From contig JAQTUP010000002.1 of NCBI GenBank assembly GCA_028707275.1, forward strand, positions 59,198 through 123,197: DNA of 64,000 bases, written 5' to 3'. The translations under genes were made by a program, and so were the position numbers. Below the pieces are notes generated by a model, which saw nothing but the letters and a program-made list of their open reading frames with translations, made no database searches and was not told where the DNA came from. The stretch comes from Gallionella sp. GTDB lineage: Bacteria > Pseudomonadota > Gammaproteobacteria > Burkholderiales > Gallionellaceae. Shown here in pieces: positions 1 through 57,674 of this stretch; position 1 is the stretch's first letter, and each line of letters starts with the position of its first letter.

Positions 1-1233
1 AACTGCGGTGATTTTCTGCTGGCATTGGAAGCCCGCGAACGGGCACGCACCGGGATCAGCACGCTCAAGGTTGAATATAACCGCGTACACGGTTTTTACA
101 TCGAAGTCAGCGCCGCACAAAGCGTCAACGTACCCGAGGATTACCGTCGGCGCCAGACCCTGAAGAACGCCGAGCGTTACATCACGCCGGAACTCAAGAC
201 CTTCGAGGACAAGGCGCTGTCCGCCAACGAGCGCGCACTGGCTCGCGAGAAATATCTCTATGACCAGTTGCTGGACCAGTTAGCGCCCTATATTTCGCAA
301 CTGCAACGCATCAGCACGGCCATTGCCGAGCTGGACGTGTTAGCCACCTTTGCCGAACGCGCCGCCACGCTGAACTTCAGCGCGCCGCAATTCACGGACG
401 ACGAACAAATCATCATCAAGGAAGGTCGACATCCGGTCGTACAAGCCCAGGTGGACAGGTTCACGCCAAACGATACCGAGTTGTCCTGCGCGCGCCGCAT
501 GCTGCTGATTACAGGCCCCAACATGGGAGGTAAATCCACCTACATGCGTCAGGTGGCGATCATTGTTCTGCTGGCCCATGTCGGCTGTTTCGTTCCGGCG
601 CAGCAGGCGATAATAGGCGAAACAGACCAGATTTTCACCCGTATCGGCGCATCCGACGATCTGGCCAGCGGACGCTCCACCTTCATGGTCGAGATGACAG
701 AAGCGGCCAATATCCTGCACAACGCGACTGACAAAAGCCTGGTGCTGGTCGATGAAATCGGGCGCGGCACCTCCACCTTCGACGGGCTGGCCTTGGCCCA
801 CGCCATCGCCTGCCACCTGCTGGAAAAAAACAGAAGTTACACCCTGTTTGCCACGCACTATTTCGAGCTCACGCGCCTGAATGAGGAATTCGCCCAGCTC
901 GCCAACGTGCATCTGGCGGCGATCGAACATCAGCACAGCATCGTGTTTTTGCATTCGGTCAACGAAGGGGCGGCCAGCCAGAGCTACGGGCTGCAAGTCG
1001 CAGCCCTGGCCGGTGTTCCGGCGCAAGTCATCAAGGCGGCCAAAAAACAACTGCGCGCACTGGAACAAAACAGCGCCGCACAAAACCCACAGGGCGATTT
1101 ATTTGCCGCAGTACCTGACGAACCCGAGGAACACCCCGTGCTTGGCGCGTTACGGGAACTACAGCCGGATGAAATGAGCCCCAGGGATGCACTTGAAAAG
1201 CTGTATCAATTAAAAGCATTAACGCTCGCTTGA
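1..1233 (+). CDS. mutS: DNA mismatch repair protein MutS, C-terminal ~410 aa; the 5' end lies outside the window
   Basis: The translation contains the MutS ATPase Walker A (GPNMGGKST), the [12 protein letters not shown] motif and the C-terminal dimerisation region. The reading frame is open from window position 1. Confidence 0.9.
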
Positions 1234-2147
1234 CCATCATGCACATTTCACTCGATAGTTTTGTAGCTCACCCCTTATTCGTCAAAGGGGTGGAAGCGGC
1301 TTTAGCCACCGTGCTGATCTTTATCGTGGTGCGTTTTGTCCAGACGGCCGCATCGAAGAAGATCGAGGACAAAGAGCTGCGCTACAAGATGCGCAAAACC
1401 GTCGGCCTGTCAGGTTACTTGCTCGCTCTCACCGTCGTGCTGACCATTTTCAGCGCGCAGATGACCAATCTTACGGTGATTATCGGCGCGCTCAGCGTGG
1501 GGATCGGCTTTGCCTTGCGCGAAGTCATACAAAGCCTGATCGGCTGGATCGCCCTGTCATTCTGGGGGCTGTACAAACCCGGCGAGCGGATTCAAATCGC
1601 CGGCATCATGGGGGACGTGATCGACATCGGCCTGCTGACCACCACCGTAATGGAGTGCGGCGGGTGGATCAAGGGGGATTTATACAATGGTCGCCTGGTT
1701 CGTTTATCGAACAGTCTGGTGTTCAGAGAACACATCATCAATTACACCTCGGACTTCCCCTTTTTGTGGGACGAGATTGTCATCCCGGTGAGAACCACGT
1801 CCGACCATCGCTTAGCCCGCACCCTTATCGAACAGGCCGCCATTTCTGCATTGCCCGACATCAGCGACCAATTGAAAGAGGCATGGCGCAACTTTGCGCA
1901 CCACTACCGCGTCGATGACGCCCGGCTGGAGCCTTCGGTGACGATGAATTTCGATGCCAACTGGATTGAGTTCACCTTGCGTTACGTCGTCGATTACCGC
2001 GCGAGGCGGTCGACCAAAGACCTGTTGTTTACGCGGATTCTGACCGCCATCGGCAAAACCGACGGCCAGGTACAAGTCGCATCAGCCACCCTTAAGATTA
2101 CGGAAATCGCGCCACCATCACCTCTGGCGCCGACCAACGGGATTTAA
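1230..2147 (+). CDS. Mechanosensitive ion channel family protein (MscS-like)
   Basis: A 305-aa ORF with N-terminal transmembrane helices and a conserved MscS pore/beta-domain-like region ([18 protein letters not shown]...[21 protein letters not shown]). Confidence 0.7.
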
Positions 2148-2157
2148 TCTCGCAATT

Positions 2158-2550
2158 TCAACGCAGAAGCGTATCTTCTATCTCATGCAGTAACAAAGGC
2201 AGTTCATTTTGGCAGTGTTTGAGGCAACCTGCCCGTTCACCGCCACAGCGCAACCCTATCGAGACACCTGTTTGCAACTTTTCCCACGCCTCGGGTGCGA
2301 TGTGTTTTCCGGCCTGCTGCCGGTTGCGCAGATAACGCGCATAGCGCGCCATGCTGCGAAAATAATGTTCCAGCCGGGGCAAGTGCACAGCACGCGCGCC
2401 GCCGAACAAGGTGTCAAATTCCTGGTGCAACTGATCCAGTTGCACGCGATCCAGCGGTACGCCGGATCGAACAATGGCGGCAGCCCGTTGCATGCGCTCA
2501 CAACAATCCTCACAAAAGGCCTGTGACAGAGCCTCAAAAATCTTATCCAT
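2158..2550 (-). CDS. Hypothetical Cys-rich 130-aa protein, translationally coupled to cheB
   Basis: The ORF overlaps the cheB start by 8 nt on the same strand. It has six Cys residues in CxxCC and CxxxxxxCxxxC spacing. No recognisable family. Confidence 0.5.
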   Translation of the reverse strand: MDKIFEALSQAFCEDCCERMQRAAAIVRSGVPLDRVQLDQLHQEFDTLFGGARAVHLPRLEHYFRSMARYARYLRNRQQAGKHIAPEAWEKLQTGVSIGLRCGGERAGCLKHCQNELPLLLHEIEDTLLR

Positions 2551-3619
2551 CCAAAAGCGCCTGTTCGCGCACCAGGCGACTCAAATAGGCGGGCAGATGA
2601 TCCAGCGCCACCACCTTGTCCACCGCATCCAGTGCAATGGCCGTGCCCGGCATGCCGTAGACGACGGCGCTCATCTCGTCCTGCACCACCGTGTGACTGC
2701 CGGCACTACGCATAGCCAACAAGCCATCCGCGCCATCCTCCCCCATGCCGGTCAGCAATACGCCGATGGCACGATGCTGACAGATCTGCGCCACCGAATT
2801 GAACATGGGGCTGACTGACGGACGAAAGCCATTGCACGGCGACGCCTGACTCAGGCACACCATCAGTCCGGATGAACCGCGACTGAGCAAAAGGTGCTGG
2901 TCGTCGGGCGCAAAATAAATTGTGCCCGCCTTGAGCGTTTCGTCCTGTTCTGCCAGCTTGACGTTGAGCTGGGTATTATCAGACAGCCAGGCTGCCAGGC
3001 CACCGACAAATCCCTTTGAGATATGTTGCGTGACAAGGATGGGCACAGGAAAATGGCCGGGCAACAGCGAAAAAATTTGCTGTAGCGCCTGCGGACCACC
3101 GGTCGAGCAGCCCATTGCCACCAGCTCATATATCTGACCGGGCTGAGGGAGGGGCGCGTCATAGATTTCAGCCTCAATCGTACGCTCGATTTTTTTCCGA
3201 CTGAACAATTTCACCTGTGACATGGCACGCACGGTATCCACCAGATCGCGGCGTATGGACTCGAAATCAGGATGGGCGAAGCCGCGCGGTTTTTCCATGA
3301 CGGCCAGCGCGCCTTCTTCTATGGCTCGAAAAGTGATGCGCAACTCTTCATCATCCACACTGGAACTGACCACCACGATAGGCACCGGATTGTCAGCCAG
3401 AATCAAACGGGTCGCCTCGAAGCCATCCATCACCGGCATGCGGATGTCCATGGTAATCACATCAGGCGTCAGATCATGTGCCATCTGCACGCCTTCCAGG
3501 CCGTTTTTGGCGTGCCCCACCACCTGCATGTCCGCCTGCTGCTCAAAGATCGCCCGAAGCAGGAGCGCTACGACCGATGAATCTTCCACGATGAGAATAC
3601 GTAACATAATTCCTTTCAA
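2543..3619 (-). CDS. cheB: Chemotaxis response regulator protein-glutamate methylesterase CheB (REC plus methylesterase)
   Basis: It has an N-terminal receiver domain (ILIVEDSSVVALLL...MDIRMPVMDG) and a C-terminal CheB methylesterase domain (IAMGCSTGGPQAL...LLTGMGEDGA). Confidence 0.9.
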   Translation of the reverse strand: MKGIMLRILIVEDSSVVALLLRAIFEQQADMQVVGHAKNGLEGVQMAHDLTPDVITMDIRMPVMDGFEATRLILADNPVPIVVVSSSVDDEELRITFRAIEEGALAVMEKPRGFAHPDFESIRRDLVDTVRAMSQVKLFSRKKIERTIEAEIYDAPLPQPGQIYELVAMGCSTGGPQALQQIFSLLPGHFPVPILVTQHISKGFVGGLAAWLSDNTQLNVKLAEQDETLKAGTIYFAPDDQHLLLSRGSSGLMVCLSQASPCNGFRPSVSPMFNSVAQICQHRAIGVLLTGMGEDGADGLLAMRSAGSHTVVQDEMSAVVYGMPGTAIALDAVDKVVALDHLPAYLSRLVREQALLDG

Positions 3620-3641
3620 TTGCGCGCAAAACCAGTTGAGT

Positions 3642-5951
3642 TCAAATCAGCTGTTCCACGACGTCCAGCAATACCTTGGTTTCAAATTGACCCTTGACAA
3701 TATAGGCCTCGGCGCCAACTTCAATGCCGCGCAGCCGGTCTTCCTCGCGGGCGAGCGAGGTCACGATGATGACCGGCACCGCTTTGAGCCGCTCGCTCTG
3801 TTTAATCAGTGCGGTCAGTTCAAACCCGTTCATTTCCGGCATTTCAATATCCGTCACAACCAGATCAAATGTTTGTTCTTGCAGCATGAGCCATCCCTGA
3901 CGTCCGTTAACCGCCACACTGACCTTGTAGCCTGCATGCTCCAGGATACTTTTCTCCAGAGTACGGGTCGTAATGGAATCATCCACCACCAGCACAGACG
4001 GCACCGGAGCACTCTCGGCGCCGTCATCGCGCGGTGTGGCAAGACTTGCGCTCAACGCCGAGTCCACCAGATCCGACGGGTTGAGCACCATGATCACCTC
4101 ACCGCTGCCGGTCAGCGTGCCACCGTTGACATTACGCACTGACAGCAGGGGCGGGCGAAACGGCTTGACGACGATTTCACGCTCACCGATCACTTCATCG
4201 ACCAGAAAAGCCACACTATCCCAGCCTTTGGCCACCACGACCACAGGCATGGATTTTTTATGGCTGACTTCAGATTCGGCCAGGCTCAGGATCGCGGCCA
4301 GATCGCGCAACGGAATACTGTGCCCGCGATGCAAGATGGCATGACTGGCTTCGATTTTGATAATCTGGCAAGACTCGATCTCCATCACCTTGTCCACGGC
4401 TGATACCGGAATGGCAAACACCACCCCGCCTGCGCGTACCAGCACGCCATGCTCGGTGGCCAGCGTGATAGGCAGTCTGAGAATAAAGCGCGTACCATGC
4501 CCCTCTTCGGTTTCCAGCTGCACAGAGCCTTTGAGCTTGCGCAGATTTGCAACGACCACGTCCAGCCCCACGCCGCGTCCGGACATGCTGGTGATGATGT
4601 CACGGCTGGAAAAACCGGGACGAAAGATCAGGTTCATGATTTCCTCGCGCCCCATGGAGGCGAGCTCTGCATCGACGACCAGCTTCTTTTTGCGTGCGCA
4701 GTCCGCAATCTTTTCAGCCGAGATGCCAGCGCCATCGTCCTCTACGGTCAATACGACCTGACTGCCTTCGCTGAGAACCGAAATATGCAGACGACCCTCG
4801 GCGGGTTTACCATCCTCCAGCCTTTGTTGCGGCAATTCAATGCCGTGATCGAGCGCATTGCGCAGCAGGTGAATCAACGGGTCGCGGATACCTTCGAGCA
4901 CCATGCGATCAATTTCAATCTCGTCACCGCTGATTTCAAAATTGATTTTCTTACCCAGCTCACGCGCGATGTCCCGCACCTGGCGCGACAGCGGGCGCAG
5001 TAAACTCGCCACGGGAACCTGCCGCATCATGCGTACATTCTGCTGCAAGGATTCCACCAGCAATCCCAGACGACTGCAACTCGAACGCATTTCCCGGTGT
5101 GTCCGGGCACTGGAAGAATCAAGCTCCGCAATCGCATCTGCACTGCGCTTTTGCGCGGCAGCATCAGGGGGCGACGCCCTGTGGGGCACGACCAGCGCCT
5201 GTACACTGTTGCGCAACTGCTGCAAGGAAGCTAAATGATCGTCCATTTCAATTTTTGTGACCTGCAGCGCTTCCATCATCGCGGCCAGATTTTCGAGCTT
5301 CTCCCGGCTGATCCTCACCACCTCCGCTGACGGCCTGGCACGGGCTGACTCCGAAGTATTAACTGATTCGGCGTCTTCATCAGCGCCCGTCGGCGCGATG
5401 CGTTCGACGGGAGGTACGGCGGGCGCCATCGAAGAAGAGGCGGTTTTCTGCGTCGCATGAACGGGTAACGCATTAATGACAGCTGAATCAGCCGGTCCGG
5501 CGCCCTCCTCTGCCACTGACGTCACGGGCATCGCGGACGGCTGTTCGACGAGTGAGGCGACCTTTTCCAGTCGCAGGATCAGCCCCTCCTTGTCGAAGGA
5601 TCGCCCGGCATCAAAGGCTGCCATCGCCTGACGAATCGCGTCCATGGCTTCGAGCACAATATCGGTCACCTCCCCGTCCGGATTGCGCGACTCCCGTTTT
5701 AACACGGCAAAAATACTCTCCAGATGGTGTGCGATGTCGGATACATCATTCACTTCGACCCCGCGCGCAGCACCCTTGATATTATGCGCGGCACGAAATA
5801 CGCCTTCGAGCACCTGACGCTGCTCGTCGCCCGCCGCCCCCTTCTCCAACACCAGCAAACCATCGGTAATCACCTGGAGTTGCTCCTCCAGTTCGATGGC
5901 AAAGGTGTCCATCAGCATGCGCATCAATTCCTGATCAAATCCTAATGGCAT
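3642..5951 (-). CDS. cheA: CheA-CheY hybrid histidine kinase (Hpt, dimerisation, HATPase, CheW-like, C-terminal REC; WspE-like)
   Basis: The Hpt motif (HNIKGAARGVEV), the HATPase_c G-boxes (GRGVGLDVV), a CheW-like domain and a C-terminal receiver (VLVVDDSITTR...DIEMPEMNG) are all present. Confidence 0.9.
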   Translation of the reverse strand: MPLGFDQELMRMLMDTFAIELEEQLQVITDGLLVLEKGAAGDEQRQVLEGVFRAAHNIKGAARGVEVNDVSDIAHHLESIFAVLKRESRNPDGEVTDIVLEAMDAIRQAMAAFDAGRSFDKEGLILRLEKVASLVEQPSAMPVTSVAEEGAGPADSAVINALPVHATQKTASSSMAPAVPPVERIAPTGADEDAESVNTSESARARPSAEVVRISREKLENLAAMMEALQVTKIEMDDHLASLQQLRNSVQALVVPHRASPPDAAAQKRSADAIAELDSSSARTHREMRSSCSRLGLLVESLQQNVRMMRQVPVASLLRPLSRQVRDIARELGKKINFEISGDEIEIDRMVLEGIRDPLIHLLRNALDHGIELPQQRLEDGKPAEGRLHISVLSEGSQVVLTVEDDGAGISAEKIADCARKKKLVVDAELASMGREEIMNLIFRPGFSSRDIITSMSGRGVGLDVVVANLRKLKGSVQLETEEGHGTRFILRLPITLATEHGVLVRAGGVVFAIPVSAVDKVMEIESCQIIKIEASHAILHRGHSIPLRDLAAILSLAESEVSHKKSMPVVVVAKGWDSVAFLVDEVIGEREIVVKPFRPPLLSVRNVNGGTLTGSGEVIMVLNPSDLVDSALSASLATPRDDGAESAPVPSVLVVDDSITTRTLEKSILEHAGYKVSVAVNGRQGWLMLQEQTFDLVVTDIEMPEMNGFELTALIKQSERLKAVPVIIVTSLAREEDRLRGIEVGAEAYIVKGQFETKVLLDVVEQLI

Positions 5952-5982
5952 GATTGCTCGTTTCAGTTATGGGTTAAGCTGC

Positions 5983-7518
5983 CTACAGTTTGTAAGTGCT
6001 GACGCTGTCGCGCAGCCGCTCGGCCACACGGCGCAGGTCTGCCGACGACTGCTTGCTTTGTTGCGCGGTGGTGACAAATTGCGCCGTCACTTTATTGATT
6101 TCTTTCATCGCCAGGGTCACCTGTTCGATGCCGATAAATTTTTGCCGCACTACAGCCGAAATTTGCTGGCTTGCGATGGCCGTTTCACGCACGACTTCAC
6201 CCAACTTGCGCACCACCTCCCCGCTTTTTTGCACCGACAGCATCCCGGCATCCACCCCTTTGCTGCCCTCTTCGGTGGCCATCACTGCGCGATCCGTTGC
6301 ATGCCGTATATCCTGGAGTATCTTTTGCACCTGAGCGGTCGATTGCTGCGATTGCTCCGCCAGCTCACGCACTTCGGCCGCGACGACGGCAAATCCCTTA
6401 CCTGCTTCGCCGGCTTTGGCAGCCTCAATGGAGGCATTGAGCGCCAGCATCTTGGATTGCTGGGCAAGGTTGGTCACGACAGCCGTAATTTCACCGATTT
6501 GCTGTGTCTGCTCGCTGAGCGCCAGTATGGTTTGCGCGATACCTTCGACGCGCTCGCGGATCGCTATCATACCCAAAATAGCCTGTTCTACCGCAACACT
6601 GCCTTGTTCGCTTTCGCGTCTGGCGCGTTCGGCCGACTCCCCTAACACCTGCATTTTCTCCATGGTCTGAGCCGACATGGCCTTGATTTCATCAAGCGAA
6701 GAAGTGGTTTCGTTGACCGCTGCCGCCTGTTCGGAAGCACCGGCCGACTGGCCGTTGATCGACTGCTGCAATTGCTCCAGCGTGCTGTAAATGGTATTGA
6801 TCGCCTCTGTCGTATCCGAGGCCACATGCGCCAGACTTTCTGTCATGCCATTGAGATTACTGCCCAGCTTTGCCAGATCGTCGCTGCCCACCACATCAAG
6901 CCTATGGCTCAAATCGCCCTCGGCCACGCTTGCAATGAAAGTCTGATAGGTCGCCAGTCTGGCCTCAATCTCATCTTTTGACATGCTGACCCCGTTCAGG
7001 TCAGTCATCAAACCATGTATATAGGTATCCATGGACAACTGGGAATCGATGGAGATGATCTTATGCAAGGCTTGCAAAGCCGCCTCCCGCGCACGGGCAT
7101 TCCACCGGTACTGGCGCTGGATCAACTTGACGATCTGGCAACTGTACACACTGTAACTGCCCAAATACCAGCGCGGAGTAAGACCAATTTTGTTGTGGAT
7201 CACACCGATTTTCAACCGCCGTTCAAAATAGGCGTCGCCATAATCTCCATCGAACATTTCCAGCAGATAGCGTTTCTGGGTCGTCTTGAGCCTGTCAATG
7301 TTTGAACCGGCCTCCCCGATGACATTCATCAGTTCGGTATATCGCTCGATATTGGCGTAAAAAGCATCGACAATGACGTCCGAATGCTGCTGGATAAAGG
7401 GACGCAAGGCTTTTAACGCTTGTATGTCCTGATCGCCAAAATCGACAAACTTCTTGCGCGAGGCCTGTTCGTTCGCATCAATACCCATCAACTGGGTCAG
7501 GGACTGGCTAAATTTCAT
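5983..7518 (-). CDS. Soluble globin-coupled methyl-accepting chemotaxis protein (HemAT-like heme-based sensor)
   Basis: It has no TM segments. The N-terminus is a sensor-globin fold (FYANIERYTEL..., LTPRWYLGSY). The C-terminus carries the highly conserved MCP signalling motif (LALNASIEAAKAGEAGKGFAVVAAEVRELAEQS). Confidence 0.85.
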   Translation of the reverse strand: MKFSQSLTQLMGIDANEQASRKKFVDFGDQDIQALKALRPFIQQHSDVIVDAFYANIERYTELMNVIGEAGSNIDRLKTTQKRYLLEMFDGDYGDAYFERRLKIGVIHNKIGLTPRWYLGSYSVYSCQIVKLIQRQYRWNARAREAALQALHKIISIDSQLSMDTYIHGLMTDLNGVSMSKDEIEARLATYQTFIASVAEGDLSHRLDVVGSDDLAKLGSNLNGMTESLAHVASDTTEAINTIYSTLEQLQQSINGQSAGASEQAAAVNETTSSLDEIKAMSAQTMEKMQVLGESAERARRESEQGSVAVEQAILGMIAIRERVEGIAQTILALSEQTQQIGEITAVVTNLAQQSKMLALNASIEAAKAGEAGKGFAVVAAEVRELAEQSQQSTAQVQKILQDIRHATDRAVMATEEGSKGVDAGMLSVQKSGEVVRKLGEVVRETAIASQQISAVVRQKFIGIEQVTLAMKEINKVTAQFVTTAQQSKQSSADLRRVAERLRDSVSTYKL

Positions 7519-23094: not shown

Positions 23095-25170
23095 CTAAGT
23101 ATCTAGCTCAGCTGTTAACAAGCCAGTCAAAGTGTCCAATAAGTCTTTTGGCAACAATTTAGAATAATCAGCCAAGACCGTCTCGGCAACGTGTCGCATC
23201 AGATCGCCTGCGTGTTTGTTTTTTGGTTTTAAGAAACCGAACGCAGTGATAATGCTTCCCTCAAGTTCATGATCATCTTTATGCAAGTATTCTTTTGCTA
23301 CTTGCATAGTCATGCCATTGAGGTACTCCACCTCAATGGTTTCCCGAGGCAACTGCGCGGGGCCCAATATTAAATTCTGCAAAGCATCAATGGCCCGTTG
23401 CCATCGTTCATGATCCCAGTTAGATATTGACATGTAACTATCCTCTTGATCGAGAATACCTTTGTCTTTTGCAAAGGCCGCATTTTCCCCTGCAATCGTT
23501 ACGACTAGTAATACAGGATCAAATAGTAACGACTCAAGGCCATCTCGAACTCCCGGTGATAAAACGTGCATTCGGCCTTTTGTTGCGCGCTCTCCATCCC
23601 AGTCAACTAGACCGAGAACACTTTGATTTCCTCCGGTAGATAGACCATCAACTAGTCTCATGACTTGTGCGCATCCAGCGTTCTTTTCGCCGCCAGATTC
23701 ATCTGTATTACCCACTTCCACGAAAACCAGCGAACGTTCTGAATTCAAGTGCGCCTTATAGCGCTGAAAAAGCAAGTCGTAGAGATTTGCATCTGTACGA
23801 CTTTCCACAAATATTTGACGTCTTCCATCAAAAGCAATAGAAAGAGTCGGCACGCCAACAGTAAGAAGTGAAAGCGCTAAGCTCTTGCTAACTTTGTCAA
23901 TTCGTGGACCGACAGGGTTCATCGAATAAATTGCTTCCTCAGGTGCGAGCGCTACGGTTGAAGGGCTATGGGTCGTAAGAATGACTGAAACGTTCTTGTC
24001 GCGAACGAGAACATTTTGAATGGTATTTAGCAAAGAAGCCGTCATGGATGGATGCAAGGGCGCATCTACTTCATCAAGTAGCAACAGTTTTGGAAACTCC
24101 TTTGCCTGACGACTGTCCTGTGAGTTGTAAAGACACAAAGCAAACGACATGAGAACTTTTTCACCAGAAGAAAGATCTTGAAATCGCATCTCTACAGTTG
24201 TGGAAAGCTTGTAGAGTTTAGGCTCATACGAGGCGATTTCGTGAAGTGGTGGGTAATCGACTCTAAAATCAAGGCGACATTCTTCTAAGATCTGATTTAC
24301 GAAATCCCAAGGCGGGGAGCCATACTCGGAAACAAACTCTTCTTGAGATAAATATCGCCTTGTAGGTTCCTCCGGTGGGGGATATTTTTGTAATCTGTCA
24401 TTATCGTGGATCAACTCACGATACCTAGTGAAAACGCGGCCAAAAGCTTGTTGAAATGGATCAACACCGCCCCAAAGCAAATTTTTATCTTGAAAAAAAG
24501 TGGACTGTGAAGAAACCAGAAAGGTCTCAGGCGAATACTGTTGAATTTTAGGCACTGCTTTACGCCAATGTTCATCGCCAATTTGATTAAAGGAGTTGCT
24601 ACCTACATTTGAGCCAGCCTGCTTAATATTCTGCTTGATGGAAGCTTCCACTTGCTCCGCTTTTGCGGGATCTGCCAAGACTCCACGCAATACCTCTACA
24701 GTTAGTGAATTAATTTTCTGGATATTAGAACAGTATTCGGCAGGAACTCCTTGATTAAGAGCATGCTGTTTGATGCCCGGCAACTGCTGTTCACGGTGAG
24801 TTTGCATAGTTGTAAACCATTGTGATCGCCTCGATTGATCTTTAGCGGGATCAAAGATGCCGGTATCTGTAGGAATGATTGACGCTGAGTCGAAAAGGCG
24901 AACATCAACGTTTAAATTGTTTGCAAGCGACGACCTTACCTGCCCCCCTTTTATCGCCGTTAGTAAGTGAGTTTTGCCAGATCCATTTCGCCCCGTCAGT
25001 ACTACAAACTTGGGCAAAGTGATCTCCTCCAGTTGCGTTATTGATTTATGAACCGATGCAAAAGTAAGTGTGTTTGACATAGTCTTAAGTTGTGCAAATC
25101 TTTCGTCTTGGAGTTTCAATATACCGGAAGGTATGGAGTAGTGCAGACCTCTGGCATGACAGTTTCCCAA
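23095..25170 (-). CDS. OLD-family ATP-dependent endonuclease (ABC-type ATPase plus C-terminal Toprim), class 1 stand-alone
   Basis: It has Walker A (LTGRNGSGKTHLL), an ABC signature-like LSSGEKVLMSFAL, Walker B (LLLLDEVDAPLH), and C-terminal Toprim-like E (IFVESRTD) and DxD (LVDWDGE) motifs. GC is about 45%, against ~60% in the flanks. An alternative start lies at 25080. Confidence 0.7.
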   Translation of the reverse strand: MGNCHARGLHYSIPSGILKLQDERFAQLKTMSNTLTFASVHKSITQLEEITLPKFVVLTGRNGSGKTHLLTAIKGGQVRSSLANNLNVDVRLFDSASIIPTDTGIFDPAKDQSRRSQWFTTMQTHREQQLPGIKQHALNQGVPAEYCSNIQKINSLTVEVLRGVLADPAKAEQVEASIKQNIKQAGSNVGSNSFNQIGDEHWRKAVPKIQQYSPETFLVSSQSTFFQDKNLLWGGVDPFQQAFGRVFTRYRELIHDNDRLQKYPPPEEPTRRYLSQEEFVSEYGSPPWDFVNQILEECRLDFRVDYPPLHEIASYEPKLYKLSTTVEMRFQDLSSGEKVLMSFALCLYNSQDSRQAKEFPKLLLLDEVDAPLHPSMTASLLNTIQNVLVRDKNVSVILTTHSPSTVALAPEEAIYSMNPVGPRIDKVSKSLALSLLTVGVPTLSIAFDGRRQIFVESRTDANLYDLLFQRYKAHLNSERSLVFVEVGNTDESGGEKNAGCAQVMRLVDGLSTGGNQSVLGLVDWDGERATKGRMHVLSPGVRDGLESLLFDPVLLVVTIAGENAAFAKDKGILDQEDSYMSISNWDHERWQRAIDALQNLILGPAQLPRETIEVEYLNGMTMQVAKEYLHKDDHELEGSIITAFGFLKPKNKHAGDLMRHVAETVLADYSKLLPKDLLDTLTGLLTAELDT

Positions 25171-27879: not shown

Positions 27880-29475
27880 TTAAGGTTTATCGCTCACCGA
27901 GTGAAAATCCAGATCAAAGCGCTGCAAGTATTGTTTGAGTCGATGCGAGTCGTTGGCGCTGGTTTTTTGCATGCGGCTCCGGTTGAACAGGGTGCGCCCG
28001 GCCTCAGCCAGATTCCGGCTGTTTCGGCAAACCTGTATGACTTTTGCAAGCTGTAACTGATCGAACAAGTCGAGTTCGTCCAGAGCCTGTGGCGACAGCA
28101 CTTCGCGCAGTATGTCGGTGGACGCCGCATCACTCTTCGCGAAACTCGACCAGCCTTTTTGCAAGCGCAATATTTCTTCTGCGACAACCTCTTCCGTGAT
28201 GCGACCACCGGTCGCCAGTGTCGCCATACGCGTGATGCTGGAGTTGAGATCGCGAAAGTTGGCGCGCCACAACGCGGCTACAGAATTCGCAAAAGCCAGA
28301 TAGACTGCCCGGGCTGCCTTGTTGAAGCTGACCTTGTGACCGGCCTTGACGGTGAACTGGTGCAACTCGTGCTCAATGTTGGGTTCAAGGTCTTCAAGCC
28401 GATTTTTCAGCGAGGGCAATTCGTATGTCCACAAGTTGATGCGCGCGAGCAAATCTTCGCGAAATCTTCCCTGCAGGACCTGCTCATACAAATCGCGATT
28501 GGTTCCGGCAATCAACTGAAAGCTGCTGCTGACTTCATGATCTGAGCCGAAAGGCATGAAGGATTTCTCTTCTATCGCCCTGAGCAACATCGCCTGTTCG
28601 TCTGTACCCAATTCGCCCACCTCATCCAGGAACAGCAGTCCTCTGTCTGCTTCGCGCAGCAGCCCTGCGCGCGGACTCTGTGCGCCGGTAAAGGCGCCTT
28701 TGACATGGCCGAACAGTGCCGACATTGCGTTGTCGCCGCGCAGCGTGGCGCAGTTGACTTCAACCAGACGGCCGGTCAATTGCCCGCGTTGCTTCTTGAG
28801 TTCATAGATGCGTTTAGCGAGGCGCGATTTGTCGGCGCCAGTAGGTCCGGTCAGCAGAATCGGCGACGATGACTTGATAGACACGCGCTCCAGTTGCGAG
28901 ATCAGACTATTGAAGGCGGCGTTGCGGGTTTCGATGCCGCTTTTGAGATAGGTGATGCCATCCATCGCCTCGCGCTCGAAACGCTGAGCGATTTGATCGT
29001 AGCGCGACAGATCCAGGTCGATGACCTGATAACTGCCCCTCGGGTCATTATCTGCGGGCGAGGTTTGCAGCAGTTTGCCCGGGATGTAGCGCGCCTCGGT
29101 TAACAAATAAAGGCAGATTTGCGCAACATGTGTGCCCGTGGTGATGTGCACGTAATAGGAATTTTGCTCGGGATCGAAGCTATAGCTGCGGGTGAAATCC
29201 AGAAGCTGGCTGTACACCTCTTCAAAATCCCACGGGTTCTGGTAGTTCACAATGTAAGGCGTGATCCGCGTTTGTGGCGAGAGCGCCTGCATGTCGCGCA
29301 CCGTGAGGGCAGCCAGTTCAGCCTCATCCGGGTGGTGGATCAGGACAAATTCCGCGACGGGCAGCTCGGCTTGCATCAGTAACGAAACACTGGGTCGCCA
29401 GCGCTGGGAGCGGCAGCGTCCCAACCCGCCGTGATCCAGCCTCGAACCCAGAATGCCGATAACCACATTATTCAT
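27880..29475 (-). CDS. rtcR: Sigma-54-dependent transcriptional regulator RtcR (N-terminal CARF domain, AAA+ sigma-54 activator, C-terminal HTH)
   Basis: Colinear similarity to E. coli RtcR across the CARF region (NPWDFEEVY...HITTGTHVAQICL...IDLDLSRY), the AAA+ core (ILLTGPTGADKS, the GAFTGA motif) and the C-terminus. Confidence 0.9.
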   Translation of the reverse strand: MNNVVIGILGSRLDHGGLGRCRSQRWRPSVSLLMQAELPVAEFVLIHHPDEAELAALTVRDMQALSPQTRITPYIVNYQNPWDFEEVYSQLLDFTRSYSFDPEQNSYYVHITTGTHVAQICLYLLTEARYIPGKLLQTSPADNDPRGSYQVIDLDLSRYDQIAQRFEREAMDGITYLKSGIETRNAAFNSLISQLERVSIKSSSPILLTGPTGADKSRLAKRIYELKKQRGQLTGRLVEVNCATLRGDNAMSALFGHVKGAFTGAQSPRAGLLREADRGLLFLDEVGELGTDEQAMLLRAIEEKSFMPFGSDHEVSSSFQLIAGTNRDLYEQVLQGRFREDLLARINLWTYELPSLKNRLEDLEPNIEHELHQFTVKAGHKVSFNKAARAVYLAFANSVAALWRANFRDLNSSITRMATLATGGRITEEVVAEEILRLQKGWSSFAKSDAASTDILREVLSPQALDELDLFDQLQLAKVIQVCRNSRNLAEAGRTLFNRSRMQKTSANDSHRLKQYLQRFDLDFHSVSDKP

Positions 29476-29611: not shown

Positions 29612-29627
29612 TGGCACAGCGATTGCA
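29612..29627 (+). promoter_or_regulatory. Sigma-54 (RpoN) -24/-12 promoter for rtcB
   Basis: TGGCAC-N5-TTGCA matches the consensus exactly, about 55 nt upstream of the rtcB ATG and divergent from rtcR. Confidence 0.7.
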
Positions 29628-29682: not shown

Positions 29683-30909
29683 ATGAATACACCATACGAA
29701 GTTATACACGATGCAGGGTCGCACCTTATCAAATCCTGGACGCGCGGCGTTCCGTTCGACGACAACTCCAGGCAGCAATTGCGCAATATCGCGCGGATGC
29801 CGTTTATTCACAAATGGGTAGCTGCGATGCCGGACGTACATTTGGGTAAAGGCGCCACGATAGGCAGCGTGATCCCGACCCTGGGTGCGGTAATCCCGGC
29901 AGCGGTAGGCGTGGATTTGGGATGCGGGATGATGGCGGTAAAAACCTCGTTGACGGCAGCGCAATTGCCGGATTCGCTGGGTGCGATGCGTAGCCAGATC
30001 GAGAAACGTGTGCCGCACGGGCGCTCGGCAGATTTGCGCGGTGGGCGCGATACCGGAAGCTGGGGGCGCGCGCCGGACGAAGTAATGACGGCGTGGGAGC
30101 CGCTGCGCGCAGGGTTTGAACGCCTGTGCGAAAAGCACCCGTTCCTGAAGAACACCAACAACCTCTGCCACCTTGGAACTTTGGGTACGGGCAACCATTT
30201 TGTGGAAATTTGCCTGGACGAATCCGATGCGGTTTGGGTGATGTTGCACAGCGGTTCGCGCGGCGTGGGGAATCGCATCGGCACACACTTTATCGAGGCC
30301 GCAAAGAAGGACATGGAGCGCTGGTTTATCAGCCTGCCGGACAAGGATTTGGCATATATCCCGGAGGGTAGCGAAAACTTCAGTGCTTATATCAGGGCTG
30401 TTTCCTGGGCGCAGGATTTTGCCCGCGTGAACCGCGAGCTGATGATGGCGAATACCTTGAGCGCGATGCGCGAAGTGATGAAAGTAAATTTTATCGTCGA
30501 CGTGGAGGCCGTGAATTGCCACCACAACTACATCAGCCAGGAGCACCATTATGGCAAAGACGTCTGGGTCACGCGCAAGGGCGCGGTGAGCGCGCGTCTG
30601 GGCGAGATGGGCATCATCCCGGGAAGCATGGGGGCGAAATCCTTCATCGTGCGCGGGCTGGGCAACGAGGAAAGTTTTTGTAGTTGCAGCCACGGTGCCG
30701 GCCGCGTGATGTCGCGTACCGAAGCCAAGCGTCGTGTGACGCTAGCCGAACATATCAAAGCCACGGAAGGCGTGGAATGCCGCAAAGATGCTGACGTAAT
30801 TGATGAAACGCCATCCGCTTACAAACCCATCGATCAGGTGATGGCGGCGCAAGCGGATCTGGTAGAAATCGTGCATACCTTGAAGCAGGTGGTCTGCGTC
30901 AAGGGATGA
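29683..30909 (+). CDS. rtcB: RNA-splicing ligase RtcB (3'-phosphate/5'-OH RNA ligase)
   Basis: A 408-aa protein with the conserved RtcB metal and GTP-binding histidines and the Cys-containing N-terminal motif. It is the canonical divergent partner of rtcR. Confidence 0.95.
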   Translation: MNTPYEVIHDAGSHLIKSWTRGVPFDDNSRQQLRNIARMPFIHKWVAAMPDVHLGKGATIGSVIPTLGAVIPAAVGVDLGCGMMAVKTSLTAAQLPDSLGAMRSQIEKRVPHGRSADLRGGRDTGSWGRAPDEVMTAWEPLRAGFERLCEKHPFLKNTNNLCHLGTLGTGNHFVEICLDESDAVWVMLHSGSRGVGNRIGTHFIEAAKKDMERWFISLPDKDLAYIPEGSENFSAYIRAVSWAQDFARVNRELMMANTLSAMREVMKVNFIVDVEAVNCHHNYISQEHHYGKDVWVTRKGAVSARLGEMGIIPGSMGAKSFIVRGLGNEESFCSCSHGAGRVMSRTEAKRRVTLAEHIKATEGVECRKDADVIDETPSAYKPIDQVMAAQADLVEIVHTLKQVVCVKG

Positions 30910-31015
30910 CAAGAGTTTGGTGCAAGGCTATGGCCTGCGGTGCAGATTCAACAGTCTGCCTGACGCCGCCGCCTCTGGCGACCTGCGTATCGGTGATAGC
31001 CCGACACTAAATAAT

Positions 31016-31088
31016 GCCGCCATAGCTCAGTCTGGTAGAGCACCGGGTAAAACCGGGCGTCGCGGGTTCGAATCCCGCTGGCGGCGCC
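31016..31088 (+). ncRNA. tRNA-like element with canonical acceptor, D and T arms but a shortened anticodon arm (4-bp stem, 6-nt loop GUAAAA); tRNA mimic or tRNA pseudogene
   Basis: GCCGCCA/TGGCGGC acceptor, GCTC-AGTCTGGTA-GAGC D-arm, GCGGG-TTCGAAT-CCCGC T-arm. The anticodon arm is 14 nt (CCGG-GTAAAA-CCGG) rather than 17. There is no encoded CCA. It abuts the next element with no spacer. Confidence 0.45.
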
Positions 31089-31162
31089 TTCGCTATAGCT
31101 CAGCCGGGTAGAGCGCTGAACTCATACTTCAGTTGTCGCCGGTTCGATTCCGGCTAGTGAAA
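31089..31162 (+). tRNA. tRNA-Met/Ile2-like (anticodon CAU) with an unusual U1-A72 first pair and a G4-U69 wobble
   Basis: A full cloverleaf: acceptor TTCGCTA/TAGTGAA, D-arm GCTC-AGCCGGGTA-GAGC, anticodon arm CTGAA-CTCATAC-TTCAG (CAU, A37), T-arm GCCGG-TTCGATT-CCGGC. Confidence 0.5.
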
Positions 31163-31414
31163 CTACCCTGTCACGGTAGTTGTAGAAAAGCATGACACCG
31201 GCAAGTCTCCCGGTGAAAGGTGTAATAAAACCGGGGCGTAACAGCAACACCCAAACCTCGATTTCTGCACACCCGACATCAGCCCGGAGGTTGCCTTGTA
31301 GCAAGGTTAGACGTGCGCGCGATTGGCTTCAGGCAGCTTGCCCGCACGCCACGACGTTATAAGCCGACAAACGGGCGGAGGCTTGCCACTTTAATTATGC
31401 AGAAGGGACGCATC

Positions 31415-32587
31415 ATGAAGTTGTTTGACATCGAATACAAAGAAATCATCATTTCCGAATCGCAACGCGGGTTGCTGTTCAAGGACAAGCAGTTCGCCAG
31501 GGTATTGATGCCCGGCGTACACAAGATGCTCGATTACATGAACCGCTACCAGGTGCAGGTGTTCGAGGTACTGAAAACTTTGCAGGAGGGCGTATCCAAA
31601 GAGGTCATTTACCTGGCAGAGCTGCACACCGGGGCTTTTGCAGCGCACTTGCAGGCATGGGAAACCGCCGAGAACGAAATCGGGCTGGTGTACCAGAACA
31701 ACGTACTCAAAGACATCAAGGCACCTGCGCTGCGCGGCGCATACTGGAAAACGCAGCATGAAATCCGTGTCGAAAAAATCGACATCGGCGAGGATTTTGC
31801 CGTCGACAAAAAACTGGCGGCCTTGCTATCCAATTGCAAGGATGATCTGCTGAAACTGGCCGCAGCCAATGCTATCGCGAGTGCCACCGTACCCGAGCGC
31901 CATGTCGGTTTTATGGAGGTGGACGGTGTAGCGGTTGCAACGCTGGCTACAGGAGCGCATGTTTGGTGGAAGTTCAACCGCAAAATCGCGGTGACACTGC
32001 TGGATTGCCGTTTGCAGAACATGGAAGTCAACGGGCAGGAAATCCTGACCAGAGATCGCGTGAGCCTGCGTGTCAATTTGTCCGCTACCTGGCAGATCAA
32101 GCAGGCCGAGGTGGTAAAGGCCGAGTTGGCCGATGCCCGGGACTTTTTGTACCGCGAACTACAGCTGGCTTTGCGCGCTGTTGTCAGTACGCAGACGCTG
32201 GATGAACTTCTGGTCGACAAAAACTCGTTGAACCAGCAAGTGCAGGCCATCGTAGCGAACAAAGCGGCAGAATATGGGATCGAGGTCAAATCCGTCGGTG
32301 CGCGCGACATCGTGTTGCCCGGAGAAATGAAAGCCATCCTGACGCAGGTCGTCGAGGCGCAAAAAGTGGCCGAAGCCAACCTGATCAGGCGTCACGAAGA
32401 AACCCAGGCCACGCGCTCGCTGCACAACACGGCCAAGGTGATGGAGGGCAACCCCGTATTGCTGCGTTTGAAGGAGCTTGAGATTCTGGAGAAGATTTCA
32501 GGTCGCATCAGCACGCTGAATGTTTATGGCGGACTGGACGGTGTCATGAACGATATGGTCAGATTGACTGACCGTAGCGCAAAGTAG
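31415..32587 (+). CDS. Soluble SPFH/band-7 domain protein with a ~180-aa inserted domain
   Basis: An SPFH N-terminal strand (IISESQRGLLFKDKQFARVLMPGVHKM) and a C-terminal SPFH core plus coiled coil (DRVSLRVNLSATWQI ... IVLPGEMKAILTQVVEAQKVAEANLIRRHEE) are present. No TM segment. The longer annotated ORF start at 31313 is unlikely. Confidence 0.7.
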   Translation: MKLFDIEYKEIIISESQRGLLFKDKQFARVLMPGVHKMLDYMNRYQVQVFEVLKTLQEGVSKEVIYLAELHTGAFAAHLQAWETAENEIGLVYQNNVLKDIKAPALRGAYWKTQHEIRVEKIDIGEDFAVDKKLAALLSNCKDDLLKLAAANAIASATVPERHVGFMEVDGVAVATLATGAHVWWKFNRKIAVTLLDCRLQNMEVNGQEILTRDRVSLRVNLSATWQIKQAEVVKAELADARDFLYRELQLALRAVVSTQTLDELLVDKNSLNQQVQAIVANKAAEYGIEVKSVGARDIVLPGEMKAILTQVVEAQKVAEANLIRRHEETQATRSLHNTAKVMEGNPVLLRLKELEILEKISGRISTLNVYGGLDGVMNDMVRLTDRSAK

Positions 32588-32753: not shown

Positions 32754-32798
32754 TGGCAGGAACGAGCAGACTCGAACTGCGGACCCCTTGGATGTCGA
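32754..32798. repeat. 45-nt direct repeat of the tRNA-Val 3' end (distal attachment-site-like boundary of a genomic island)
   Basis: The sequence tggcaggaacgagcagactcgaactgcggaccccttggatgtcga matches 37937-37981, the 3' part of the intact tRNA-Val, at 43 of 45 positions. Confidence 0.7.
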
Positions 32799-37936: not shown

Positions 37937-38013
37937 TGGTAGGAACGAGCAGACTCGAACTGCTGACCCCTTGGATGTCGACCAAGTGCTCTAACCAACT
38001 GAGCTACGCTCCT
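37937..38013 (-). tRNA. tRNA-Val (anticodon GAC), CCA encoded
   Basis: The reverse complement, AGGAGCGTAGCTCAGTTGGTTAGAGCACTTGGTCGACATCCAAGGGGTCAGCAGTTCGAGTCTGCTCGTTCCTACCA, folds as a canonical cloverleaf with GAC in the anticodon loop. Confidence 0.9.
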
Positions 38014-56477: not shown

Positions 56478-57674
56478 ATGAACGAACTGGTATACCCGCG
56501 CGAACGCACACTCGGCACCATCACCCTGGTGCTGGGTCTTCTGGCCTGGCTGGCTCTTATCCTTGGCACCTTCGGTGGTGCACTGATAGGACTCGCGCTG
56601 GGGTTCCTCTTCTACCTGTTCGCTCAATCTGCGCTGATAGCTCATCTGAAGGGAAATGGCGTCGAACTGTCCGAATCCCAGTTCCCCGACCTGTACGCGC
56701 AATTTACAGCCTGTTGCGATCAACTACAAATAAAGACTCGCCCACAGGCATACATCCTCAACGGCAACGGCGGACTCAACGCGTTCGCCACCCGGTTTCT
56801 CGGCACGCAATACGTGGTATTGATGTCGGACGTCATCGATGCGATGGATCAACATACCGATGGCGTACGCTTCTACATCGGACACGAACTGGGTCACCTG
56901 CGCATGAAACATCTGAGCGGACACCTGTTACGCTGGCCTGTGCTCTGGCTGCCCCTCCTGGGGGCGGCCTACTCCCGCGCACGCGAGAGCACCTGCGACC
57001 GCCACGGACGGGCCTGCTGCGCATCACCCGAAGGCGCGCTCAGAGCGCTCGCGGCGCTCTCAGCTGGCACTGAGCGCTGGAAACAACTCGATATCTCAGC
57101 CTATCTTGACCAGATCAGATACTCATCAGGCTTTTGGATGTCATTTCACGAACTGACCGCAGGCTACCCCTGGATCACCAAACGCGCAGCCCGAGTGATG
57201 GACACGGGCGCACCGATGCCCCGGCGGAATGTATTCGCCTGGCTGCTGGCAGCGATCACGCCCTATGCGGGACGACTGGGCGGAGGATACGGCCTGCTGA
57301 TCATGATCTATATCGCAGGCGTTCTGGCCGCCATTGCGATTCCAGCGTATCACGACTACACGACCAAGGCCAGGCTCAGCACCGCTGTCACCGCTACAGA
57401 AAACGCCCGCACAGTGCTTGCCAACTATTACCGGGCCAATCAAAAGACACCGGAATCGCTGGAAACAGCAGGTATCCGCTCGCCGATGACCGATGGCACA
57501 CGGCTTGCACTCGACGCGGAAAAAATGATACTGACCGTTGGCACCGACCGTGGAGATCTGGTCTTCACCCCGGTTGTTGACGCCGAAGGGCTAATTAGCT
57601 GGGATTGTACGAACGGCGAAGGTCTGGAGCCTGCACAGCTGCCCGCCTCATGCCGCAGCAGCCAAAATGACTAG
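56478..57674 (+). CDS. M48-family zinc metallopeptidase fused to a C-terminal type IV pilin-like domain
   Basis: N-terminal TM helices and a HEXXH motif (FYIGHELGHLRMKH) are present. The C-terminal ~140 aa have a pilin alpha1-like hydrophobic helix (LLIMIYIAGVLAAIAIPAYHDYTTKA) and a C-terminal disulfide-loop pattern (WDCTNGEGLEPAQLPASC). Confidence 0.7.
   Translation: MNELVYPRERTLGTITLVLGLLAWLALILGTFGGALIGLALGFLFYLFAQSALIAHLKGNGVELSESQFPDLYAQFTACCDQLQIKTRPQAYILNGNGGLNAFATRFLGTQYVVLMSDVIDAMDQHTDGVRFYIGHELGHLRMKHLSGHLLRWPVLWLPLLGAAYSRARESTCDRHGRACCASPEGALRALAALSAGTERWKQLDISAYLDQIRYSSGFWMSFHELTAGYPWITKRAARVMDTGAPMPRRNVFAWLLAAITPYAGRLGGGYGLLIMIYIAGVLAAIAIPAYHDYTTKARLSTAVTATENARTVLANYYRANQKTPESLETAGIRSPMTDGTRLALDAEKMILTVGTDRGDLVFTPVVDAEGLISWDCTNGEGLEPAQLPASCRSSQND

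Follow-up and report, generated by a model that had tools for sequence, protein, structure and literature searches.

Bacterial RtcB/RtcA/RtcR systems are widespread and affect survival under toxin, antibiotic and DNA-damage stress. The abstract of a 2016 article by Burroughs and Aravind in Nucleic Acids Research reportedly counts SPFH/Band-7 modules that include 'a novel tRNA-like molecule' among potential scaffolding cofactors. We analysed a stretch of 64,000 nucleotides (nt) from Gallionella sp. (GenBank assembly GCA_028707275.1, contig JAQTUP010000002.1, positions 59,198 to 123,197), hereafter the window, in which two abutting tRNA-like elements, T1 and T2, lie between the RNA ligase gene rtcB and a gene for a Band-7 protein. 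We conclude with high confidence that T1 and T2 are real, conserved, non-decoding tRNA mimics that are linked to Band-7.

Among described systems, b7a-tRNA, the tRNA associated with band-7, forms a module with Band-7 and RtcB that was predicted by Burroughs & Aravind in 2016 (as cited in bioRxiv 10.1101/312249). The citing preprint, the only paper in which full-text searching met the term b7a-tRNA, describes this module as a functional parallel of Rsr plus YrlA that is experimentally unvalidated (Wang, Chen, Wolin & Xiong, bioRxiv 10.1101/312249). The YrlA RNA (RF02553; Chen et al. 2013, 2014; PMC4201824) has almost the same D-arm and T-arm consensus as T1 and T2, and the D arm UAGCUCA...GGUAGAGC is common to both. 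YrlA is likewise encoded in an RtcB operon controlled by RtcR and sigma-54, its tRNA-like domain does not decode, and its D and T stems, like those of the mimics, are near-invariant beyond what the fold needs. The two differ in architecture: YrlA is one RNA whose circularly permuted tRNA-like domain is closed by a Ro-binding stem, whereas the mimics are two unpermuted cloverleaves with free acceptor ends. The shared D- and T-arm sequence would fit common ancestry or a shared protein partner, and permuted domains of the YrlA type could derive from a tandem pair like T1/T2.

Two tRNA-like genes and their Band-7 partner

The two elements and the genes on either side of them are:

29683..30909, plus strand: rtcB, RNA 3'-phosphate/5'-OH ligase (Pfam RtcB, 435 bits, full length)
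31016..31088, plus strand: T1, a T1-class tRNA mimic whose acceptor, D and T arms are perfect; its anticodon arm (CCGG-GUAAAA-CCGG) is vestigial and its 3' end reads G-CC
31089..31163, plus strand: T2, a T2-class tRNA mimic with a full cloverleaf, loop CUCAUAC, U1-A72 and A73, without CCA
31415..32587, plus strand: Band-7/SPFH ('slipin family') protein of 390 amino acids, predicted soluble (Pfam Band_7, 94.9 bits)

In ARAGORN, 31016-31088 came out as 'tRNA-???' whose 'anticodon' has 2 nt, and 31089-31163 as tRNA(CAU). Both also exceed the gathering score (29) of the Rfam model RF00005: T2 scores 65.5 bits (E 5e-12), and T1, whose anticodon loop aligns with 3 nt deleted, 57.1 bits (E 1e-9). In T1, the ARAGORN bracket output gives an anticodon stem of 4 bp (CCGG/CCGG) and a GUAAAA loop of 6 nt; the acceptor stem GCCGCCA/UGGCGGC is followed by G73 and CC, and the terminal A is not encoded. 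T2 begins on the base after T1, with zero spacer, and its acceptor stem UUCGCUA/UAGUGAA includes the U1-A72 pair and one G-U pair. An earlier note on this DNA, made from the letters alone, had described two abutting tRNA-like elements about 107 nt after the rtcB stop and on its strand, the first with a truncated anticodon arm and the second a CAU cloverleaf with U1-A72. ARAGORN, Rfam and direct reading of the sequence agree with that description, and the rtcB stop (30909) lies about 106-107 nt before T1. The note's statement that T1 lacks an encoded CCA is right for the terminal A and wrong for the CC, which is encoded.

The window was compared with 80 fetched loci (81 in total), each with a relative of RtcB at 66-82% identity; they represent Methylococcales, Cellvibrio, Thiothrix, Kangiellaceae, Methylophilaceae and other lineages. 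In the ARAGORN output for many of the fetched loci, rtcB is followed on its own strand by one tRNA-like gene or an abutting pair, with 'anticodons' that were odd (AAA, AUU, AAG, ACA) or unassignable. A tblastn search with the window Band-7 protein showed that these elements track the Band-7 gene and not rtcB: where a Band-7 homologue was present, one or two mimics lay upstream of it on the same strand (50/50 loci). This count includes mimics overlooked by ARAGORN and added by a T2-class covariance model (L022, L027, L028, L035, L042, L052, L057 and L068). The distance from mimic to Band-7 was 220-500 nt, except in L019 and L035 (~830-850 nt). In the two Marinobacter loci, L061 and L074, the mimic pair stays with Band-7 on the strand opposite to rtcB. 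The T2-class model found no mimic in loci that lack Band-7 and have at least 2 kb of downstream sequence; its sole matches in Band-7-less loci were a genuine tRNA array in L049 and a truncated match at the very end of L036. Because the mimics accompany the Band-7 gene in every locus that has one and are absent from the evaluable loci without it, their obligate partner is the downstream Band-7/SPFH gene, not rtcB.

The array in L049, a groundwater gammaproteobacterial metagenome-assembled genome (MAG), is a different kind of association between rtcB and tRNAs. There, at 1125-4864, tRNA genes surround rtcB: the array counts at least 18 of them, apparently genuine, and the majority have encoded CCA ends.

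More distant loci have the gene order rtcB-rtcA-mimic-band7, and rtcA is missing at the window locus. The intervening protein of ~340 amino acids in these loci starts like E. coli RtcA, and we take it to be RtcA by eye, not by a profile. Across Beta- and Gammaproteobacteria, the mimics are kept in position and in structure, with compensatory changes. Homologous elements, which the earlier note had proposed to look for in related genomes, stand at the same place in 49 other loci of many genera, and both families covary; the elements are therefore not a product of chance. The note had also named the contrary outcome, two ordinary tRNAs whose orthologous loci hold an unrelated, isolated tRNA gene. 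The data disagree with it twice, as T1 is non-canonical and the related loci keep the elements. Its proposed tie to the Rtc system stands in outline: the sigma-54 context and the conservation at rtcB loci support it, but the obligate partner is Band-7.

We file the window under the b7a-tRNA kind because every defining feature that we checked is present. T2 ends 252 nt upstream of the Band-7 gene, the RtcB ligase gene lies upstream of T1 on the same strand, and both RNAs strongly resemble authentic tRNAs, being called by ARAGORN, well matched by the Rfam tRNA model and supported as cloverleaves by covariation. All three parts of the module, RtcB, Band-7 and the tRNA-like RNA, are thus at the window locus. 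T1 and T2 belong to the predicted b7a-tRNA class as the citing preprint portrays it, and hence are not categorically new. Rfam 15 holds no b7a-tRNA family.

Mimic classes, covariation and anticodon loops

The tandem T1+T2 pair is present in 26/49 loci, the window included, and the remaining loci carry a single T2-type element. Pairing in the T2 family was found in 93.8% of cells, as against 72.8% in shuffles (0/500 as high) and 28-38% in slid controls, with compensatory changes on both sides at every pair of the anticodon stem (5) and of the acceptor stem (7). The T2 D arm UAGCUCA...GGUAGAGC is invariant (43/43 sequences) and shows no covariation; the T arm is near-invariant. In the 26 tandem loci T2 has A at position 72, and in 24 of 43 sequences positions 1 and 72 do not pair.

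The T1 family is equally well supported as a structure, with 94.6% of cells paired compared with 74.2% in shuffles, none of which (0/500) reached the observed value. Its anticodon arm varies from 5 to 32 nt across the 26 loci and has the canonical 17 nt in 4/26 only; in L028, at 5 nt the shortest, the arm is almost deleted. Since the T1 stems covary and the T1 body is conserved, the T1 of the window is typical of its class, not a gene in decay. At the T1/T2 junction, an NCC(A) tail occurs in 19-21 of the 26 loci, where NCC follows T1 and the first base of T2 is often A. The NCC(A) end of T1 is, in effect, written across the junction.

The anticodon loops behave otherwise. The T2 loop has 7 nt in 37/49 loci and displays 13 different triplets (CAU in 11 loci, GUU in 7, UAU in 3, and others), with an entropy of 1.98 bits at position 34, which is almost random; CAU and GUU loops recur in distant lineages. 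With respect to the stem and loop features of decoding tRNAs (5 bp; 7-nt loop, U33, R37), T1 is without them and the window T2 has them, whereas 12/49 T2 elements deviate by loop length and others by U33 or R37. Four close relatives (L083, L084, L086 and L087) share the layout rtcR | rtcB - ~505 nt - band7, and their Band-7 and RtcB proteins are 81-96% and 85-96% identical to those of the window. Their loops and arms compare as follows:

window: T2 loop CUCAUAC; T1 arm CCGG-GUAAAA-CCGG
L083: T2 loop CUCAUCA; T1 loop GUUAAA
L084: T2 loop UUUGGAA; T1 loop of 9 nt
L086: T2 loop AUAGUCA; T1 arm CCGA-UGCAAA-UCGG
L087: T2 loop CUAAUAA; T1 arm CCGA-UCACAA-UCGG

Divergence of the four relatives from the window was:

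T2 body: 0.04-0.13
T2 loop: 0.29-0.71
T1 body: 0.06-0.22
T1 loop: 0.17-0.78
rtcB four-fold degenerate sites: 0.15-0.67

By these comparisons the loops appear to evolve at roughly the neutral rate and the bodies 5-8 times more slowly, which excludes a conserved decoding function. Diversifying selection on the loops, as in an arms race, is unsupported: their mean divergence is ~0.5 against ~0.45 at rtcB four-fold sites, small numbers from four relatives.

These observations bear directly on the reading that makes T2 a true decoding tRNA (for elongator Met, or for Ile2 after lysidinylation) and sees in T1 a tandem duplicate that has decayed. The window T2 taken by itself would suit that role, with its canonical 7-nt loop, U33, CAU, A37, universal D- and T-loop residues, an A73 compatible with methionyl-tRNA synthetase and an Rfam score of 65.5 bits. 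However, the anticodon is not conserved among orthologues: on an almost unchanged body, the five closest loci read CAU, CAU (with C37), UGG, AGU and AAU. The 13 triplets and non-7-nt loops across the family and the frequently unpaired 1:72 position count against decoding as well, and the covarying stems and conserved body of T1 count against decay. We consider a decoding T2 very unlikely.

The earlier note suggested a Y-RNA-like identity, and a specific form of this idea is that the T1/T2 junction is a circularly permuted, YrlA-type Y RNA serving Ro60/Rsr. Rfam does match YrlA at 31054-31121, over model positions 23-88 of 114; the match covers the T1 T-arm and the T2 D-arm, which shares the YrlA consensus, and between them a hairpin (6 bp, UGGCGG/UCGCUA) in which the 3' acceptor strand of T1 pairs with the 5' acceptor strand of T2. 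Its score is 37.9 bits against a gathering threshold of 69. The cross-pairing between T1 3' and T2 5' strands in the window (6/7 pairs) is the best of the 26 loci, but such pairing averages 4.1/7 within loci and 4.15/7 between loci (permutation p ~0.72), so it is not conserved, and each cloverleaf's own acceptor stem covaries. The Ro-binding motif GNCGAAN0-1G is absent from 30910-31420, and Pfam found no TROVE/Ro60 domain in 20 open reading frames (ORFs), a set with all neighbours of the locus and the majority of the window's large ORFs. On these grounds we reject the permuted fold over the junction, membership of the YrlA family falls away, and we regard a Ro60-serving Y RNA at this place as scarcely credible.

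The Band-7 protein, its RNA leader and the promoter

The Band-7 protein of the window matches a 'slipin family protein' from a Gallionella sp. MAG at 100% identity, and has more than 6000 homologues at E <= 1e-20; we found no relatives in viral contigs. No hydrophobic segment was detected in it (maximum Kyte-Doolittle value 1.04). An AlphaFold2 model (mean predicted local distance difference test score, pLDDT, 83.5) places an N-terminal beta-rich region of ~190 residues before the SPFH domain and long C-terminal helices after it. The best sequence match in the PDB is stomatin, and Foldseek matched the model to the cage-forming SPFH proteins stomatin, HflK/C, prohibitin, erlin and flotillin. 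Foldseek also aligned it over nearly its full length to the major vault protein (430-485 columns, probability 1.0, template-modelling (TM) scores 0.36-0.41). By this model, Band-7 is a soluble SPFH protein with a predicted vault-like fold.

The eukaryotic vault particle, made of major vault protein, vault RNA and the TROVE-domain protein TEP1, offers a comparison. The beta-rich repeats, SPFH 'shoulder' and long helix have counterparts in the Band-7 model, and in both cases a small structured non-coding RNA is linked with an SPFH-type protein. The two also differ: the TM scores are modest (0.36-0.41), vault RNAs are not cloverleaves, the present setting is bacterial RNA repair, and a cage and RNA binding are predictions for Band-7.

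A second comparison is with E. coli, in which an island of slipin, nucleotidyltransferase and zeta toxin lies next to yjbD in 1629/5426 complete genomes. Its slipin is a Band-7 homologue 39% identical to that of the window, and its 5' region combines the motif TGGCAC-N5-TCGCA, which is sigma-54-like, with a single hairpin resembling a T-arm. In the E. coli E2865 locus (L082) these features are:

4891-4906: sigma-54-like motif TGGCACGCTTCTCGCA
~5017-5031: hairpin UGGGUUCGAUUCCCA
5205-6332: slipin gene

The E. coli island differs in that rtcB is not adjacent and the partners are the nucleotidyltransferase and zeta toxin. ARAGORN found no full tRNA mimic there, and model R1 matched the T-arm alone.

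The interval of ~250 nt between T2 and band7 is conserved and structured. It contains:

31163..31179, plus strand: hp1, hairpin CUACC-CUGUCAC-GGUAG directly 3' of T2, 100% paired in alignment A4
31200..31386, plus strand: structured leader of ~187 nt, with closing helix GGCAAGUCUCC / GGAGGCUUGCC and two branches, 31212-31280 and 31282-31376

The hp1 stem covaries between groups (UACC/GGUA, CACC/GGUG, UGGU/ACCA, UCGA/UCGA) and diverges by 0-6% in the close relatives, compared with 15-67% at neutral sites. The closing-helix strands of the leader (31200-31210 / 31376-31386) leave 28 nt between its end and the Band-7 start codon. An RNAalifold consensus from 13 loci gives the leader 46 pairs, 33/46 with compensatory changes; 89.4% of cells are paired, as opposed to 74.5% in shuffles (0/500) and 35-41% with slid partners. 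The minimum-free-energy fold of the single sequence has the same architecture. A search of Rfam 15 returned no family match for the hp1/leader RNA. The leader could be cis-regulatory for band7, or it could be part of a larger non-coding RNA.

By reading, a closing helix of other sequence appears also in the rtcA-containing loci, where the strand register of the MAFFT alignment A5 is inconsistent. Those loci and Methylophilaceae carry an extra element after the mimic/hp1, made up of GGUAAAG and, after a short GNRA hairpin, a T-arm GGGGUUCGAnUCCCC (L037:5405-5445, L032, L045, L048, L057, L064, L067, L071 and others; also L033, L039, L040 and L043). It looks like a partial third tRNA-like elbow, and the lone E. 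coli hairpin UGGGUUCGAUUCCCA resembles its T-arm. The window is without this element.

Upstream of rtcB, both features of an RtcR-regulated Rtc operon are present, a divergent rtcR and a sigma-54 promoter:

27880..29475, minus strand, divergent from rtcB: rtcR, sigma-54 activator with RtcR/CARF N-terminal domain (Pfam RtcR 243.9 bits and Sigma54_activat 152.7 bits)
29612..29627, plus strand: sigma-54 promoter consensus TGGCACAGCGATTGCA, a perfect TGGCAC-N5-TTGCW match 56 nt before the rtcB start codon

The rtcR ORF scored 773 bits against the NCBIfam equivalog RNA_repair_RtcR (cutoff 650). The perfect consensus occurs twice in the 64-kb window; the second copy, TGGCACACGGCTTGCA (57494-57509, plus strand), falls within the ORF 56478-57674 or at its end. 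Many related loci have this sigma-54 motif at the same place upstream of rtcB. In L012, L013 and L027, other genes stand between rtcB and the module; there T1 is preceded, at a distance of 120-175 nt, by a second sigma-54 consensus, which in L012 shares the same 16 nt with the site before rtcB. It appears from these sites that sigma-54 control of the module is kept whether or not the module is fused to rtcB, and their presence supports the view that the rtcB promoter also serves the module in the window. The interval from rtcB to T2 showed no terminator-like or sigma-70-like site on the plus strand, and before band7 that strand has a single terminator-like match, weak, at 31374-31387, within the 3' strand of the leader closing helix. 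We infer that rtcB is co-transcribed with T1, T2, the leader and band7. The earlier note had raised carriage of the elements on a sigma-54 transcript as a possibility; the perfect consensus before rtcB, together with the separate consensus where the module is detached, supports it.

The spacer between rtcB and T1 is itself conserved above neutral: at 30942-30988 it diverges by 0.15-0.33, compared with 0.15-0.67 at neutral sites. It holds hairpins, such as GCAGA...UCUGC at 30942-30959, which shows a compensatory change in L084.

The position of the mimics between two ORFs of one predicted sigma-54 transcript raises the possibility that they act in cis as punctuation. The cloverleaves would recruit RNase P and RNase Z/E and thereby uncouple the stability or translation of the rtcB and band7 messages, and the excised RNAs would have no function. 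Zero spacing and the NCC(A) junction suit processing by RNase P, the anticodon loops are unconstrained, and the neighbouring 5' leader of band7 is itself structured. However, RNase P requires just an acceptor/T-arm minihelix, yet the D arm of T2 is invariant and its anticodon stem is compensated at 5/5 pairs. Moreover, two different paralogues are kept side by side in 26 loci, and the mimic stays with a separately transcribed band7 (L061, L074, L012, L013, L027), where nothing upstream needs to be split off. Purely cis-acting punctuation is unlikely by this account.

Mobile and defence-related genes surround the locus. Just downstream of band7, a 45-nt direct repeat (96% identical) of the tRNA-Val(GAC) 3' half, at 32754-32798 and 37937-37981, flanks a 5.2-kb insert, which is an island integrated at tRNA-Val. 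Its cargo encodes a PDC-S70/DUF3368 protein, an IS3-family transposase and the type IV restriction enzyme GmrSD, together with the C-terminal part of a defence gene, a DRT UG5-nitrilase reverse transcriptase. Upstream of the Rtc locus, on the minus strand at 23095-25170, lies a 691-amino-acid ATPase whose best PADLOC match is ATPase-Toprim (OLD-family, AriA/PtuA/GajA-like). This match and the tRNA-Val island place the Rtc module in a defence-island neighbourhood.

The tRNA-Val repeat is also a precedent, within the window, for T1 and T2 as functionless remnants of a tRNA duplication or of a mobile element that integrated near rtcB. T1 and T2 are full-length, though, and are conserved across Beta- and Gammaproteobacteria with bodies that change 5-8 times more slowly than neutral sites. 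We give this explanation hardly any weight.

The defence-island setting suits another rival, in which the RNAs are sacrificial look-alikes that are cut by anticodon nucleases or tRNA toxins, and either soak up the toxin or feed 2',3'-cyclic-phosphate fragments to the CARF domain of RtcR. RtcR is activated by tRNA fragments with cyclic-phosphate ends, and YrlA has been proposed as a competitive inhibitor of anticodon nuclease (PMC7790460). A bait or sensor could also use what the T2 loops offer: a 5-bp stem and 7-nt loop in 37/49 loci, enrichment of U33 and A37, and the recurrence of CAU (11 loci) and GUU (7 loci) in distant lineages. Against this, the loops change at about the neutral rate and not faster, with no sign of an arms race or of mimicry being maintained; T1 has no usable anticodon loop, and its arm is almost deleted in L028. 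The RNAs lie downstream of an inducible promoter and so would be scarce before induction, and the obligate linkage to Band-7 is left unexplained. We find the bait or sensor role distinctly improbable. It and cis-processing are the main rivals, both weakened.

The mimics in the RtcB repair operon

In the reading that we consider probable, T1/T2, hp1, the leader and Band-7 form an accessory module of the RtcR/sigma-54-controlled RtcB repair operon, whose RNAs do not decode and act with Band-7. RNA damage would activate RtcR, and sigma-54 RNA polymerase would start at 29612-29627 and produce a single rtcB-T1-T2-leader-band7 transcript. Enzymes of tRNA processing would excise both cloverleaves; because the NCC(A) junction is conserved, we infer that an RNase P cut at the 5' end of T2 leaves the G-CC of T1 for completion by the CCA-adding enzyme. 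The comparison of related loci shows that T1 and T2 take the L-shape of a tRNA by way of near-invariant D and T arms, with anticodon loops that, at their neutral rate of change, bear no sequence information.

Strict gene linkage and the literature suggest that these L-shaped RNAs act in trans as protein ligands, most likely in partnership with an oligomer of Band-7 that would aid or scaffold RtcB on damaged tRNA-like substrates. The mimics would thus be to Band-7 what Y RNA is to Ro60 in rsr-yrlBA-rtcBA operons. This specific ribonucleoprotein mechanism is a tentative proposal, to which we assign less than an even chance.

Several points weigh against the favoured reading. The T2 loops across the wide family are enriched for U33 (26/37), U36 and A37 (28/37), so that constraint on the loop may not be wholly absent; the enrichment may be an ancestral signal or a weak constraint. 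The conservation of the leader allows a purely cis-regulatory role for part of the RNA. PADLOC and NCBIfam, both searched, hold no specific model for the window Band-7 (PADLOC has no RtcB model either). The b7a-tRNA assignment follows the description in a citing paper and not a published alignment. Binding of T1/T2 to Band-7 or RtcB is proposed from gene linkage, and expression, processing and binding of the family members are predictions from sequence.

A bolder extension is that of a bacterial 'mini-vault', in which T1, T2, hp1 and the leader would be the RNA part of a soluble Band-7 cage induced by RNA damage. We think it unlikely. The cage would hold L-shaped tRNA look-alikes and, via them, RtcB or real, broken tRNAs for repair; Band-7 would autoregulate by binding to the leader as a mimic of its RNA partner; and the tandem mimic plus leader would be an undescribed multi-domain RNA family instead of 'a tRNA-like gene'. 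In the accessible literature, which excluded the text of the 2016 founding paper, we found no account of two paralogous mimic classes with a junction NCC(A), of neutral anticodon loops, of a sigma-54 promoter that follows the module, of the covarying ~190-nt leader, or of a soluble, vault-protein-like Band-7 fold.

For annotation, the mimics are likely miscalled as tRNA-Met, tRNA-Asn, pseudo-tRNAs and the like, which would distort the tRNA complements of their genomes. For RNA repair, the Band-7/tRNA-mimic module would be a second, independent tRNA look-alike recruited to an RtcB operon. It offers experimental handles in two separable RNA classes with defined ends, freely mutable loops and presumably immutable D and T arms, as well as in a sigma-54 promoter that moves with the module, a conserved structured leader and a soluble, vault-like SPFH protein. 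Identifying the binders of T1 and T2 would tell the purpose of tRNA mimicry in RNA repair, and would also test SPFH cages as bacterial RNA-binding particles.

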